NCBI RefSeq assembly: GCF_965212735.1
Contig: NZ_CBDBYJ010000002.1
Coordinates: 96,692 to 128,691, forward strand
Source: Mycoplasma todarodis
GTDB lineage: Bacteria; Bacillota_I; Bacilli_A; Mycoplasmatales; Metamycoplasmataceae
Direction: 5' to 3'
Length of the DNA: 32,000 nucleotides
Shown: positions 6,631 to 16,251 of the stretch, piece by piece
Layout: every line of letters begins with the position of its first letter
Position numbering within the stretch: the first letter of the stretch is position 1
Program-made: the position numbers and the translations under genes
The notes under the pieces: model-generated
What the model was told of the DNA's origin: nothing
Database searches by the model: none
What the model saw: the letters and a program-made list of their open reading frames with translations, nothing else

Positions 6631-7461
6631 ATGAAATTAGGAATAATAGTAGACTCTGCATCTGGTTTATCGGAAAAAGAAGCGAGAGCAAAAGGATGAG
6701 GTTATTTACCTCTACATATTTTTATGGATAATATTGATTATGCAGAAGGAAGAGACATTACTGCTCAAGATGTATATGACAAATTAACAATTGATACAGT
6801 AACAAGAACTTCATCTTCTTCATCAGCTGATATTCTTGAAGAATTTGAAAGAATGTCAAAAGAATACGATCACGTAATTTTCTATCCATTATCTTCAGGT
6901 CTTTCTGGACAATATTCAACAACATCAATGTTTGCTAAAGACTTTGACAATGTTCATGTTTTTGAATCACACTCACTTTCACTACAAGCTAAATGAAGTG
7001 CTGAGTATGCAGAAAAACTTGCATCTGAAGGTAAAACAATTGAAGAAATACTTCAAGCGTTAGAAGAAACAAAAGATAATGCATTTGCTATTATCGCACC
7101 TGGAACACTTGACTGATTAGTTAAAGGTGGAAGAGTTAAGCAAAATGTTGCTTCTATGGCTAATATGCTAAAGATTGTTCCAATGATTAAATTTGAACAT
7201 GGAGAATTAAATAAATACGGAAAAGGTAGAACTTACAACAAAACGATAATCAAAGCTATCAAAGGTGTTCAAGAGCACTTTGAAGGCGAAGAATATAAGT
7301 TACTTGTAATTCACACTTCTCACCCTGATTTAGATAAGCACGTAAAGGTTGCTGAAGAGCTAACTGGTAAAAAAGCGATAGTTATATCATTACCAACTGT
7401 AATTACAATGCACGTTGGTTTAAAAGCTATTGTAATTGCTGGTGTTAAAAACTTTGAATAA
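6631..7461 (+). CDS. DegV-family fatty-acid-binding protein (FakB-like), paralog 1
   Basis: MKLGIIVDSASGLSEKEARAKGWGYLPLHIF.. is a typical DegV N-terminus. ORFs 6724 and 7156 share the frame and join across 3 TGA codons. 276 aa. Confidence 0.85.
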
Positions 7462-7548: not shown

Positions 7549-8100
7549 TTAAGCTACGTATTTTTCTGGGTGTTCTTTCATCATTTTAGCGATGAATTCT
7601 TTTTTATCCATTTTTCCGTATTTATTCATTAGTTCAACACATTCTTCATATTCTTCTTTTGCTCATTCTTTACCTTCAAAACCAGCAACTGAAGTAATAC
7701 CTTCACGTTTTCAGTTTTTGTAAGTAGAGAAGAATGTTTCAACTTCTTTTAATCATTCTTTTGGTAAGTCATCCATTGACTCAATGTTTGCAAGTCTGTA
7801 ATCGTCAGCGTGAACTGCAACAAGTTTTGTGTCAGTTTCTCCGTCATCGATCATTTTCATTGCACCAATAATTCTGGCGTTAACTTCAACACCTGCTTGG
7901 AATACTTCATCTGAGTAAACTAATACATCTAGTTCATCTCCATCTCAATCAAGAGCTTCTTCGATGAAACCGTAGTTAGCTGGATATGTGAATCCATCTC
8001 TTAAAATTCTATCTACGACAATTTTACCTTTCGATCTGTCGTATTCATATTTAATGTTTGATCCTTTTTGGATTTCTATAGTTACGTTTAAATTTTTCAT
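7549..8100 (-). CDS. ppa: Inorganic pyrophosphatase, family I
   Basis: Not in the ORF track because of 4 in-frame TGA codons. My translation is [65 protein letters not shown]...[19 protein letters not shown].., which carries the family I PPase signature (E-x-x-K...Y-P-x-N-Y-G-F-I...D-G-D-x-L-D-V-L...D-x-G-E-x-D-x-K). 183 aa. Confidence 0.9.
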
Positions 8101-8174
8101 ACCAATATTATATATTGTTTTTAGTGGTTAAAATGCATGAAATTTATTGAAATAACTTAGAATTAATATATCGA

Positions 8175-8202
8175 TTAGCACCCTAGTATATAAGAGTGCT
8201 AA
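8175..8202 (+). promoter_or_regulatory. CIRCE-like HrcA operator upstream of hrcA (variant)
   Basis: TTAGCACCC-tagtatataa-GAGTGCTAA, compared with the consensus TTAGCACTC-N9-GAGTGCTAA. It has one arm mismatch and a spacer one nt longer. TATAAT at 8219-8224 lies 6 nt before the hrcA ATG. Confidence 0.8.
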
Positions 8203-8230
8203 AAAGAGCCCTTTCATATATAATAATATT

Positions 8231-9226
8231 ATGAATAATTTAACTAAAAGACAACAAGAATATCTACTCTTAATAACAAGAGAATATATATCAAGCGGTA
8301 ACCCAGTTGGTTCAGCTTCTTTAATAAAAGAATTTGCACTTGACGTATCACCAGCAACAGTACGTAACGAGATGGCAGCACTAGAGAAAAAAGGATACTT
8401 AGAAAAATGCCATACATCATCAGGAAGAATACCATCAGCAGAAGGATTTTTACTATATGCCAATCATTCTAAAAATACTGATGTATCTGTAGAAATACAA
8501 AAACAACTTAAAACAATATTTGCCAAAAGAACAATTGGTATTGATCAAGTTCTTGAAGAAGCTGCAGAAGCTATTTCAACAATCACTGATTTAACATTGG
8601 TTACAAAAACTGATGCAGCTGATGAATTATGTAAATCAATTCAATTTGTTCCTTTAAACGAACAAAACGCAACAATTGTTATTGTTACTTCAACTGGTAG
8701 AGTGGAATCAAAACTAGTATCTGTTAAGAATGGTGCTCAATTAGAAGATATACGTATTGCAGTTAGAGTCTTAAAAGATAGATTAGTAAATACTTCAATG
8801 AAGAATCTTGCAATTAAAACGGAAGCATTGACAGGTATTGTTTCAGAAGAAGTTAAAGATTTTGAATTTGTTATCCAAGAGATGGTTACAAAAGTATTCG
8901 ACTTCCATACAAAACAAACATCACATGTTTATGGAAGAACTAATATTATTAAAAAACCTGAATTTAAAGATAGAGAAAAACTTATTAATATTATGGAAAG
9001 ATTGGAAAGTAAATCAATTTGAGAAACTATTGAAGATCAAGCTGATAACGAAGATGAAACATTGAAAATTTCAATATTAGATAATCAAGCATTGATTTCT
9101 AAGAAAATTCAAATTGGAACAGGTTCTATGGAAATCTCTGTTGTCGGATCTGATAGAGTTGACTATGAAAAAGCGCTTCCAATCTTAAAACTACTAGATG
9201 ACCTAGTTAATGGAGGGAAAAAATAA
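8231..9226 (+). CDS. hrcA: Heat-inducible transcription repressor HrcA
   Basis: MNNLTKRQQEYLLLITREYISSGNPVGSASL...VSPATVRNEMAALEKKGYLEKCHTSSGRIPS is a typical HrcA N-terminal wHTH. Reads through TGA at 9020-9022 to TAA at 9224-9226. 331 aa. Confidence 0.9.
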
Positions 9227-9750
9227 TGTCTACAACACAAGAAATTAAAACAAGCCCTGTAAATGACAGGAAGGGTATTGGGAGTTATGTTAAAAGAGAA
9301 CTTTCAAAATTAGAAAAATCTAAAAAGAAATCAAGAACATGATGAACAATTGTTACGTCATTAGTTGGACTTTGTAATATATCAATAGTTGTTATTGCTA
9401 TTTATGCTTTAATCGGAATTTCATTTAGAAAAGTTGGTGCTGATATCTTAGTTCCAGCTTCATTGGTTTGTTTAATTACAATCACATTATTCTTTATGGG
9501 ATTTGTTCTTGCTTTATATCAAAACTTCAAACAAGATCATAAGTACAAAAAAGCAATCGACACTATTCAAAATGAATATATGAAATATAAAAGTTCTTCA
9601 TACATTTATAAAGGTAAAAGCGAAAAAGAACAAACTGAGCTTTTAAGAAGTCAAATCCAAGAAGATTTAATAAATATATTTAAGGTTAAAAAGAAACCAA
9701 GTGTTTCAAAAATTATTGTTAAAACATTGATTGGAGATAAAGATGAGTAA
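9226..9750 (+). CDS. Small 2-TM membrane protein, paralog A (174 aa), SLATT/DUF4231-like layout
   Basis: The ATG overlaps the hrcA stop (TAATG) and is preceded by GGAGGG. Two adjacent in-frame TGA codons (WW). Layout is a basic helix (KLEKSKKKSRTWW), TM1 (TIVTSLVGLCNISIVVIAIYALIGI), TM2 (LVPASLVCLITITLFFMGFVLALY), then NFKQDHKYKKAIDTIQNEYMKYKSSSYIY. Confidence 0.75.
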
Positions 9751-10270
9751 AAAAATAAGAAAAAGTATTTATCATCTTCACGATACACCAATGGAATATG
9801 TTGAAGCGCGTAGAAAACACTCTAAAAGAGATTTAATAATTTTTAGACAATTATTTATTTGATTGAATGTTGCGATTGCTATAGCCGCTGCAACAATGGC
9901 GATACTAACAGCATTAATATTCTCACTATTATTATTTGGTGGAAAAAAACCTGCATGATTCTTCTTTATGGTTACTGGAGTTTCCGCAACTACAACAATG
10001 CTAACTTCATTCATTAACTTCTTTGTTATTAAAGGTAGATACCAAGAAGCTATGAAAATCAATCAACGTATTAGAGGACAAATTACTCTATATATTAATA
10101 AAGCTGGATTCTATTCAGAAGATTCTGAAAATAGAGAAATAACTCTTTACACAAGAGTCGCACAAATTTGTGGAAATTACGATGCTATTGGCGAAACAGA
10201 TGATAACGTCAAAGAAGTAGAAGAATTAATTAAGGAAACACGTAAAAGGAGTAAAAATGCAAAAAAATAA
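9743..10270 (+). CDS. Small 2-TM membrane protein, paralog B (175 aa)
   Basis: The ATG at 9743 overlaps the end of paralog A by 8 nt and is preceded by GGAG. Layout is EARRKHSKRDLIIFRQ, TM1 (LFIWLNVAIAIAAATMAILTALIFSLLLF), TM2 (WFFFMVTGVSATTTMLTSFINFFV), then IKGRYQEAMKINQRIRGQITLYINKAGFY. 2 in-frame TGA codons. Confidence 0.75.
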
Positions 10271-10703
10271 AATAGTTGAAATACTCCAAAAAGATGAAGG
10301 AGTTATGCATATTTGAAATGTATTTAATACACAATACAGAAAAACAAGATTCTACAATGTATTAATAAACAGTTCTATATTCATCCTTACTGCAACATTG
10401 GTACTAATTAACCTTTGAGCCATGTTAACGCTTAAAAACGCTCCTTATAATACTCATGATTGACAATGAGCAAGGAACTGTTTCTTAGTAATGGCTATTA
10501 TTACAGCGTTCACAGGATTACTTACATCAGCATTATCAATATTTAAGTTTAAAGATAAGACTAGACAAATCAAAGATGCTATCTCTTCTATTAAAGAAGA
10601 GTATAAAGAATATAAGTCAAAAGACGGAAGATATTCTGAGTTCAAAAATAAAGATCAAGTATTCATTGAATTTGTTTCTGAAGCAGCATTTATAGAGTTT
10701 TAA
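10257..10703 (+). CDS. Small 2-TM membrane protein, paralog C (148 aa)
   Basis: The ATG at 10257 overlaps the end of paralog B by 14 nt and is preceded by AAAGGAG. Layout is QYRKTRFYNVL, TM1 (INSSIFILTATLVLINLWAML), TM2 (CFLVMAIITAFTGLLTSALSIF), then KFKDKTRQIKDAISSIKEEYKEYKSKDGRY. 4 in-frame TGA codons. Confidence 0.75.
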
Positions 10704-10724
10704 AAGGCACATGTGTCTTTTTTT
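10703..10724 (+). terminator. Rho-independent terminator closing the hrcA / 2-TM transcription unit
   Basis: aaaggca catg tgtcttt hairpin followed by a T-run. The T-run merges directly into the left arm of the second CIRCE. Confidence 0.6.
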
Positions 10725-10749
10725 AGCACTCTTATGCAACAAGTGCTAA
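10723..10749 (+). promoter_or_regulatory. CIRCE HrcA operator upstream of grpE-dnaK
   Basis: TTAGCACTC-ttatgcaac-AAGTGCTAA has canonical spacing and one mismatch in the right arm. A -10-like TATGAT at 10759-10764 lies 6 nt before the grpE ATG. Confidence 0.85.
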
Positions 10750-10770
10750 AAAATGTGATATGATTTGATT

Positions 10771-13265
<2,495 letters not shown>

Positions 13266-15309: not shown

Positions 15310-15385
15310 AGGGGTGTAGTTCAATTGGTAGAACAGCCGGCTTCAACCCGGCATGTTGTGGGTTCAAGTCCTGTCACCCCTGCCA
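15310..15385 (+). tRNA. tRNA-Trp (anticodon UCA, reads UGA and UGG)
   Basis: Acceptor aggggtg/cacccct, anticodon stem gccgg/ccggc with loop cttcaac (anticodon TCA), T-loop ttcaagt, encoded CCA. 76 nt. Confidence 0.9.
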
Positions 15386-15426: not shown

Positions 15427-16251
15427 CTATTTTTTTAATGCCATAATTCCAACTGCTTCTAATCCAACATGCAATGCTATTGCTGAAGGTAAGTATATTT
15501 CTATTGGCTTTTTACCAGTTGCAGTTTCAATACGTTGTAAGTGTTCTTTTATGTCTTTGTTCCCAACATGATATACGTATAGGTCACAATTATCAGCTCC
15601 AAATTTATTAATAGTATCTTTAGCAGCTTTTGTTACTGTTTTTTGGAAGGTTCTACCTTTTCCATATTTATTCAGTTCTCCTTGTGCAAAAGAAATCATT
15701 GGTACAATTTTCAACATTGTAGCCATTGAAGCTACAGTTGATCCTACTCTACCACCTTTCACAAGTCAATCAAGTGAATGAGGAAGTAAAACAGCAAAAT
15801 AATCATCTCTTGAATTATGTAGAGTATCTAATATTTCTTCTATTTCTTTTCCTTCTTTGGCCATTCTCTCTGCTTTTTCACATTGGACAACATTAATCTT
15901 TGAAAGACCATGCGACTCTATAATGTGTATATTTGAAAATTCTTTAGCAAACATTTTTAAATTATTTGTTTGACTTGAAAGTTCTGAAGATAAAGGGTAA
16001 ACAATGATGTGGTCATATTTATCAGTCATTCTTTCGAATTCTGCTAAAACTTCCCCTGGTGCTGAAGCAGATGTTCTAACCTCAGTTTCCAATGTTAATT
16101 TATCATAAACTCCTTGTGTTGTGATATCAATACCATCAGCGTAATCTACTTTATCTAAAAAAATGTGTAAAGGGATGAAACCTCAGCCCCTATCTTCTGC
16201 TTCCTTTTTTGAAAGACCAGAAGACGAATCTACTATTATTCCTAATTTCAT
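15427..16251 (-). CDS. DegV-family fatty-acid-binding protein, paralog 2
   Basis: Minus-strand ORFs 15427..15762 and 15766..16092 plus an N-terminal part join across 2 TGA codons. The protein starts MKLGIIVDSSSGLSKKEAEDRGWGFIPLHIF.. and is collinear with DegV-1. 274 aa. Confidence 0.85.

Follow-up and report, generated by a model that had tools for sequence, protein, structure and literature searches.

Three paralogous DUF4231/SLATT-fold genes between hrcA and grpE of Mycoplasma todarodis: a candidate membrane complex in an HrcA regulon

What are three small membrane protein genes doing in the middle of a heat shock locus? In Mycoplasma todarodis, hrcA, the gene of the heat shock repressor, is separated from grpE and dnaK by three consecutive open reading frames (ORFs), here called A, B and C and together the triad. 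They lie in a 32,000-nt stretch of M. todarodis DNA with a G+C content of 30.5%, the whole of which is referred to as the window. An earlier reading of the sequence (hereafter the original prediction) had described them as translationally coupled paralogs with two transmembrane (TM) helices that resemble DUF4231/SLATT proteins and are wired to the heat shock repressor, possibly as a stress-induced module that permeabilises or remodels the membrane. We followed up this proposal by profile searches, structure modelling and a comparison of triad loci in 11 Mollicute lineages, in which the genes within 5-8 kb were annotated with Pfam. On balance, we lean towards the view that the triad encodes a heteromeric 2-TM complex, not an abortive-infection module, which may have been recruited into the HrcA regulon by the clade of M. 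todarodis and M. marinum.

Genes, family and membrane layout

Translated with code table 11, hrcA, dnaK, A, B and C are split at TGA codons; with table 4, in which TGA is read as tryptophan, all of them are intact ORFs. A tRNA with the anticodon UCA, detected by ARAGORN and Rfam at 15310-15385 on the + strand and labelled SeC by ARAGORN under the standard code, is the expected tRNA-Trp reading UGA. It backs code 4 for the window, so that ORF lists based on table 11 are misleading. TGA is a sense codon in all triad loci compared. Re-translated with table 4, hrcA (8231-9226, 331 aa, one TGA-Trp codon) is followed on the same + strand by A (9226-9750, 174 aa), B (9743-10270, 175 aa), C (10257-10703, 148 aa), grpE (10771-11427) and dnaK (11457-13244). 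The orthologues of hrcA, grpE and dnaK carry the Pfam domains HrcA, GrpE and HSP70, respectively.

The genes of the triad are tightly interlocked. The hrcA stop codon and the A start codon share one nucleotide at 9226 (TAATG), A and B overlap by 8 nt (ATGAGTAA) and B and C by 14 nt, so that the re-translation reproduced the overlaps and coordinates of the original prediction. The Shine-Dalgarno (SD)-like GGAG that it had assigned to each gene is also in place, with GGAGG or GGAG 8-13 nt 5′ of each triad start codon. The SD sequence of A is GGAGG at 9212-9216, the GGAG of B falls within the conserved C-terminal Gly codon of A, and the AGGAG of C is inside B. Overlaps, SD sequences and operators were compared across nine loci. 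The ATGAnTAA overlap from A to B was found in eight of them, and the overlap from B to C measured 1, 8, 11 or 14 nt. In the five hrcA-linked loci (the window, L001 from M. marinum, L003, L008 and L009), hrcA, A, B and C follow each other without an intergenic gap; the one exception is L009, where hrcA and A are 8 nt apart. The conserved Gly-Gly or Gly-Asp at the C terminus of A is coded by GGnGG or GGAGA, which at the same time provides the SD sequence of B, and the 3′ end of A is thus, as read from these codons, an apparent case of dual coding constraint. More generally, two protein ends are encoded by the SD sequences GGAGA, GGTGG and AGGAG in all loci, the terminal Gly-Gly or Gly-Asp in A and the basic tail in B (9730-9750 and 10240-10270 in the window). 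As these tail codons double as SD sequences, part of the apparent C-terminal conservation of the A and B proteins may reflect ribosome binding.

All three ORFs are real genes under purifying selection. Compared with the closest relative, a Mycoplasmatales metagenome-assembled genome (MAG) at a synonymous divergence (dS) of ~0.5, the ratio of non-synonymous to synonymous substitution rates (dN/dS) was 0.13 for A, 0.06 for B and 0.08 for C. These values are comparable to that of grpE (0.12); hrcA had a ratio of 0.055. Moreover, the G+C content of A, B and C, overall and at third codon positions, matches that of the neighbouring genes, as expected of native composition.

The kinship with DUF4231/SLATT, which the original prediction had proposed, was borne out by profile searches. 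B matches PF14015 (DUF4231; model length 103, gathering cut-off 24.7 bits) with 34.8 bits and an E value of 2.4e-8 over model positions 7-100. The same family was found in all nine B orthologues (best E 3.9e-9) and in seven of nine C orthologues (best E 9.4e-7). A search of 1.84 billion representative proteins with an A profile returned 44 full-length relatives of 147-228 aa, 18 of which match DUF4231 (best E 1.2e-7). Orthologues of A and C align to the DUF4231 model over its full length, and for A, B and C alike, DUF4231 is the Pfam family that their relatives match most often. Several triad proteins are already labelled as DUF4231 domain-containing by NCBI and UniRef. The NCBIfam model SLATT_1 (NF033634) scored 14.6-25.2 bits with the window proteins, below its 41-bit cut-off, C having an E value of 1.3e-5. 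It matched eight of nine B orthologues (best E 1.4e-8) and nine of nine C orthologues (best E 4.1e-8), as counted by E value and not by the 41-bit cut-off. As judged from these profiles, the SLATT_1 matches show a superfamily relationship and not membership in the sub-family, and A and C would join DUF4231/SLATT by transitive and profile evidence. One-off weak matches to Pfam or NCBIfam models (MgtE, Orbi_NS3, AmaP, holin-like and others) were dismissed as noise from TM composition.

The paralogy of the three genes emerged in full from deep profiles. Pairwise BLASTP was marginal for A-C (1e-4) and B-C (7e-4) and gave no match for A-B, and hhalign with shallow profiles reached probabilities of 13-72%; distant orthologues were needed before the relationship became clear. 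When these were included, the alignments were collinear over the whole domain with probabilities of 97.5% for A-B (E 6e-12), 98.3% for A-C (E 1e-14) and 98.4% for B-C (E 6e-15). In addition, local hidden Markov models (HMMs) of A, B and C give cross-family matches. By the measure of these profiles, A, B and C are shown to be paralogs of the DUF4231/SLATT fold that diverged long ago, in agreement with the original prediction. These HMMs detected no extra triad paralog in any locus or in the rest of the window.

The membrane layout was examined by hydropathy and by the distribution of lysine and arginine in 27 proteins, with a cut-off of 1.6 for hydrophobic segments. Two such segments are present in A, C and most B orthologues. 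The second segment of B is rich in serine, threonine and glycine and weakly hydrophobic, and it stays below 1.6 in the window protein and in three of eight B orthologues. The proposed 2-TM layout was thus recovered for A, C and most B orthologues and fell short of the cut-off for the second segment of B from the window. The termini rich in lysine and arginine and the short loop indicate a predicted topology with both ends inside. The peptides quoted in the original prediction for the helix that follows the second TM segment were found verbatim in A, B and C. Hence, the hallmarks of the DUF4231/SLATT superfamily, i.e. two TM segments, cytoplasmic termini and a helix after TM2, are present, with a weak second segment in B. 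An AlphaFold2 model of A, with a mean predicted local distance difference test (pLDDT) of 88.9 and a predicted template modelling score (pTM) of 0.73, consists of two helices of residues 14-67 and 72-122 that form a long hairpin, followed by short helices of residues 133-152 and 160-169. The predicted layout common to A, B and C is a basic N-terminal helix running into TM1, a short outside loop, and TM2 running into a long cytoplasmic helix, with both termini in the cell. SLATT-annotated giant-virus proteins were among the weak top matches of the A model in BFVD.

A related arrangement may exist outside the triad. The N-terminal positions ~55-143 of the Mycoplasma-specific NCBIfam family NF046000 (MAG1210 family, 550 aa) were matched by seven of nine C orthologues (best E 1.6e-5), which suggests that other mycoplasmas have a SLATT-like 2-TM module as part of a larger fusion protein.

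CIRCE operators and transcription units

The controlling inverted repeat of chaperone expression (CIRCE) was defined as TTAGCACTC-N9-GAGTGCTAA with at most two mismatches, located at a promoter. This limit was adopted from work on Mollicutes, in which no functional CIRCE has more than two mutations and heat induces HrcA promoters strongly, by up to ~100-fold (PMC5138195). Operator 1, TTAGCACCC-N10-GAGTGCTAA, lies 5′ of hrcA at 8175-8202 (+ strand) and has one arm mismatch, which places it within this limit. Its 10-nt spacer is atypical yet conserved: a CIRCE with the same spacer and 0-1 mismatches precedes hrcA in L001, L003, L008 and L009. Operator 2, TTAGCACTC-N9-AAGTGCTAA, lies 5′ of grpE at 10723-10749 (+ strand), also with one mismatch. 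It is located between the hairpin that follows C and grpE and was the sole match in the window at up to three mismatches, with 0.01 matches expected by chance. A grpE CIRCE with a 9-nt spacer is kept in all five hrcA-linked loci.

Each operator is followed by a putative promoter element on the + strand, i.e. a −10 box TATAAT (8219-8224) for hrcA and an extended −10 element TGaTATGAT (10756-10764) for grpE, with 6 nt from the end of the element to the ATG in either case. The succession of CIRCE and a −10 box that ends 6-7 nt before the ATG of hrcA or grpE holds for five of five hrcA-linked loci. Both CIRCE promoters are devoid of an SD sequence (8203-8233 and 10750-10773 in the window; also L001, L003, L008 and L009), and the operator occupies the −35/spacer position. 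A −10 box so close to the start codon and the lack of an SD sequence imply leaderless mRNAs for hrcA and grpE.

Between the two promoters, the original prediction had seen no terminator before 10703-10724. In keeping with this, a consensus terminator scanner reported none on the + strand inside the block; it also missed the structure after C. RNAfold placed a weak hairpin there (10702-10721, −5.4 kcal/mol), which begins at the stop codon of C and is followed by seven T residues. The whole element (10702-10724, + strand) is the likely intrinsic terminator of hrcA-A-B-C. A hairpin and T-run are clear in the window, L003 and L001 and weaker in L009, and L008 has a different, large-loop fold. The sequence of the hairpin differs between lineages, and its position is the same.

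Taken together, these elements support a division into two putative units. hrcA-A-B-C would form one transcript that is repressed by HrcA and probably leaderless, and grpE-dnaK would form the other unit, with a CIRCE of its own. By the logic of the sequence, the triad would indeed belong to the CIRCE-guarded hrcA unit, as originally proposed, and the arrangement is kept in five loci. The idea that grpE-dnaK are simply the downstream part of the same operon was not upheld, as grpE has its own CIRCE promoter. Compared with the canonical hrcA-grpE-dnaK(-dnaJ) operon of Firmicutes and with the Mollicute regulon (dnaK operon, clpB, lon), the locus is alike in having hrcA first, a CIRCE over the promoter, grpE-dnaK further on in the same direction and a CIRCE in the functional range. 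It differs in having three membrane protein genes and a terminator between hrcA and grpE, and hence two CIRCE-controlled units. In M. marinum, the spacer between C and grpE is 410 nt long (L001, 6133-6542) as opposed to 67 nt in the window and contains an SD-led ORF of 30 codons (VSNHEDCCKNESKDEAKEECKMKSEPKKEK) and a second hairpin with T-run before the grpE CIRCE.

Distribution and descent of the cassette

Is the triad an invention of the hrcA locus? Word-indexed searches recovered its relatives only in M. todarodis, M. marinum and related MAGs, and a pattern-seeded scan of a genome collection only in the close clade; two metagenome scans gave no triad match. The complete triad in the same A-B-C order is present in at least 11 Mollicute lineages. 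The conservation of the ORFs in relatives was evident in M. marinum, where the triad proteins are 56-63% identical and the synteny hrcA-A-B-C-grpE-dnaK is unchanged. L008 and L009 share the same block with other flanks, and here the triad is 32-42% and DnaK 83-86% identical to the window. When HMMs were built from nine loci, genes 1, 2 and 3 of two held-out loci best matched A, B and C, respectively.

Linkage to hrcA was confined to M. todarodis, M. marinum and three metagenomic lineages. Six lineages have a complete triad without hrcA (L007, L011, L012, L013, L014 and L015). It follows rpsM-rpsK-rpoA-rplQ in L011 and L013, with dnaG-rpoD coming next in L013, and stands beside lipoprotein genes and gidB in L012 (a 654-kb contig), glycosyltransferase and licC-like genes in L007 and HAD hydrolase genes in L014; L015 is on a TARA contig. 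The upstream genes of L007 and L012 were considered as divergent hrcA copies and rejected, as they seem to code for glycosyltransferase-like proteins and lipoproteins. Four of the six loci were scanned for CIRCE over 5-6 kb, and none was found. The notion of a module tied to the gap behind hrcA was thus contradicted.

These findings give weight to the main alternative, according to which the triad encodes a housekeeping membrane complex whose position behind hrcA is an accident of shuffling in a reduced genome, low basal read-through from the autoregulated hrcA promoter being sufficient for its expression. The varied neighbourhoods of the six lineages and the lack of CIRCE in the four that were scanned fit such a history, and a TATAAT just 5′ of the ATG of A in L007, L011 and L012 suggests that the cassette has its own promoter there. 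What argues against a functionally incidental position is the block hrcA-A-B-C-terminator-CIRCE-grpE-dnaK, which a deep clade has preserved as a whole (DnaK 83-99%, triad 32-93% identity) while the flanks of the block vary. Furthermore, the start of A has been remodelled onto the hrcA stop codon together with an SD sequence, which speaks for tight coupling and not for loose juxtaposition. We therefore consider an accidental position unlikely, though deserving of serious attention.

The same six lineages bear on a second alternative, already voiced in the original prediction, in which the triad senses perturbation of the membrane or heat and modulates HrcA. Titration of HrcA by GroEL is known in Bacillus, and in this scenario the triad would replace it. 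The location of the triad directly after hrcA, its translational coupling and the common operator fit such a role, and how Mollicute HrcA senses stress is unsettled. Since the complete triad is free-standing in six lineages, its ancestral function cannot be HrcA-specific, and none of its domains points to a protein-protein contact with HrcA. A sensor role is thus improbable to a high degree.

A neighbour-joining tree of concatenated A, B and C united the hrcA-linked loci in one monophyletic group and placed the rplQ-linked loci as their sister, and the identity of the triad declines in parallel with that of DnaK and HrcA. According to the tree, the genomic context tracks descent, the fusion to hrcA happened once, and the cassette is a stable chromosomal gene set. 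On this comparative evidence, the triad is to all appearances an old free-standing Mollicute cassette that was vertically inherited and is not specific to hrcA.

Possible role of the triad

The family to which A, B and C belong calls to mind a third alternative, namely a SLATT conflict effector: a pore for abortive infection or suicide that opens in response to a nucleotide second messenger or another infection signal, with HrcA control as an extra layer. SLATT proteins kill cells as membrane effectors, or are predicted to do so, in the cyclic oligonucleotide-based anti-phage signalling system (CBASS) and in type VII Thoeris (bioRxiv 10.64898/2025.12.03.692087), they have been predicted to be nucleotide-responsive pores (PMC7159879), and DUF4231 was reported to be enriched in defence islands (PMC10799925). 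The surroundings of the triad tell against such a role. As the original prediction had noted for cyclase, SLOG and sensor partners in the window, no SMODS/CD-NTase, TIR, SLOG or other sensor gene was found within ~5-8 kb in 11 lineages. The PADLOC models gave no match for A, B or C, neither tblastn against phages and plasmids nor scans of IMG/VR yielded relatives, and Pfam revealed no domain beyond DUF4231/SLATT in the triad proteins. Housekeeping neighbours, vertical inheritance, native composition and strong purifying selection in genomes of 0.65-1 Mb point in the same direction. Neither linkage to a signalling partner nor a defence-model match or mobile context, which are signs of a SLATT conflict effector, was thus seen. 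With the defence partners and contexts absent, we file the triad in the DUF4231/SLATT superfamily and not as a member of a conflict system, and a suicide pore seems to us a far-fetched explanation. Both this role and that of an HrcA sensor are less likely than a functionally incidental position behind hrcA.

The reading towards which we lean, a heteromeric complex recruited into the HrcA regulon, can be put as a sequence of steps. Coupled translation of A, B and C would lead to equimolar synthesis and hence to an obligate hetero-oligomeric membrane complex. Such a heteromer is suggested by the fixed gene order, by the strict joint occurrence of the genes and by their coupled translation, and a precedent is provided by SLATT protomers, which are believed to form oligomers that span the membrane (bioRxiv 10.64898/2025.12.03.692087). 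In an ancestor of the M. todarodis/M. marinum clade, the cassette would have become attached to hrcA at its 3′ end. From then on, the leaderless promoter of hrcA with its overlapping CIRCE would drive transcription of the cassette, HrcA acting as the repressor and heat or proteotoxic stress lifting the repression. The hrcA-A-B-C unit would end at the weak terminator, and grpE-dnaK would restart at the second CIRCE promoter. The product might be a SLATT-type assembly that has been domesticated and is not suicidal, whether as a small pore with a gate or as a scaffold that organises the membrane. It would serve the membrane homeostasis of wall-less cells as the membrane arm of the heat shock response of this clade. 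Based on gene order and operators, we infer with good support an equimolar hetero-oligomer and, in the hrcA clade, its HrcA-controlled co-transcription. The weakest step is the contribution to membrane homeostasis as pore or scaffold, and hence a membrane arm of the heat shock response, which we infer weakly.

Several observations weigh against a heteromeric DUF4231/SLATT complex under HrcA control. Its transcription together with hrcA, its induction by heat and its assembly are deductions from sequence. A from the window has no Pfam match of its own, and C scores 22.9 bits with PF14015, 1.8 bits under the gathering cut-off. A search of PDB with the A model gave no significant structural match, and a model of C, based on a 7-sequence alignment, was poor (pLDDT 60) and was set aside. 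The weakness of the terminator hairpin and its being missed by the scanner make read-through into grpE-dnaK possible. Finally, the six lineages in which the cassette is not linked to hrcA, together with the lack of CIRCE in the four that were scanned, imply that its core function is not intrinsically a heat shock function.

A bolder version of the proposal is that the triad forms a housekeeping heterotrimeric or higher-order channel of the SLATT fold, gated by an internal cue such as a cellular nucleotide or a heat-induced change of the membrane. In the M. todarodis clade, it would protect or vent the membrane of a wall-less cell under stress. We regard this as a speculative idea with a small chance of being correct. 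If true, the suicide-pore fold of CBASS and Thoeris would for the first time be seen in a non-immune form, whether domesticated or ancestral, and an HrcA heat shock regulon would, in this clade, have its first membrane component.

The known systems nearest to the triad share its fold and differ in organisation. Stand-alone PF14015 proteins (~135-190 aa) are similar in size, in their 2-TM hairpin and in the conserved helix after TM2, whereas the triad consists of three deeply diverged paralogs locked in one translationally coupled cassette. SLATT effectors of CBASS (2-TM), type VII Thoeris (ThsH), defence-associated reverse transcriptase (DRT) and GTPase-centric systems resemble the triad in fold family, in the topology with N and C termini inside, in basic cytoplasmic helices and in being expected to act as membrane oligomers. 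They consist of a single effector, whereas the triad would be a heteromer of three paralogs; moreover, it lacks a linked signal enzyme or sensor domain, a defence-island or mobile context and a PADLOC match, and is vertically inherited and housekeeping.

The nearest experimentally touched relative is SPD_1729 (SPN23F19500) of Streptococcus pneumoniae, a stand-alone DUF4231 membrane protein in a non-defence setting. Its gene heads the ply operon and is co-transcribed with two small genes. Antibodies were raised to the products of these, SPD_1728 and SPD_1727, whereas the membrane protein SPD_1729 could not be overexpressed in E. coli. The ply operon was considered as a homologous triad and rejected, as SPD_1729 is its sole DUF4231 membrane protein. 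The comparison is one of published descriptions, in which SPD_1728 and SPD_1727 figure neither as membrane proteins nor as 2-TM paralogs. Reported Mollicute HrcA regulons comprise chaperones and proteases and no membrane proteins (PMC5138195). Neither a three-paralog cassette nor an insertion of membrane protein genes into an hrcA operon is described in the literature on DUF4231, SLATT or Mollicute HrcA that was consulted.

SLATT/DUF4231 proteins are understood almost wholly as cell-killing effectors of anti-phage signalling, and a constrained housekeeping triad suggests that they have a physiological, non-suicidal role in the membrane as well. To the Mollicute HrcA regulon, so far described as chaperones and proteases only, the triad would add a membrane component. 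The hrcA-linked loci amount to a natural experiment, in which one heat-triggerable repressor/operator pair would control the cassette in M. marinum (isolated strain PE) and M. todarodis (isolated strain 5H); with a single pair to be triggered by heat, the function of a stand-alone DUF4231 complex would be directly testable.

The locus may be present more than once in M. todarodis material. Scaffold_90 of strain 5H (L005, 1-4625) is collinear with window positions 8023-12665 at 88.3% nucleotide identity and spans hrcA-A-B-C-grpE and the 5′ part of dnaK. This second, divergent copy of the locus could be explained by contamination, by another strain in the same culture or by a true duplication. 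Outside the heat shock block, two DegV-family paralogs with very similar N termini stand on either side in opposite orientation, at 6631-7461 (+ strand) and 15427-16251 (− strand), and a DegV pair likewise flanks the block in M. marinum and in the DT_67 MAG. In L009 (1376-4290), two ATP-synt_ab genes are located just 5′ of ppa-hrcA and resemble an F1-like ATPase alpha/beta pair after an ORF of ~1000 aa.

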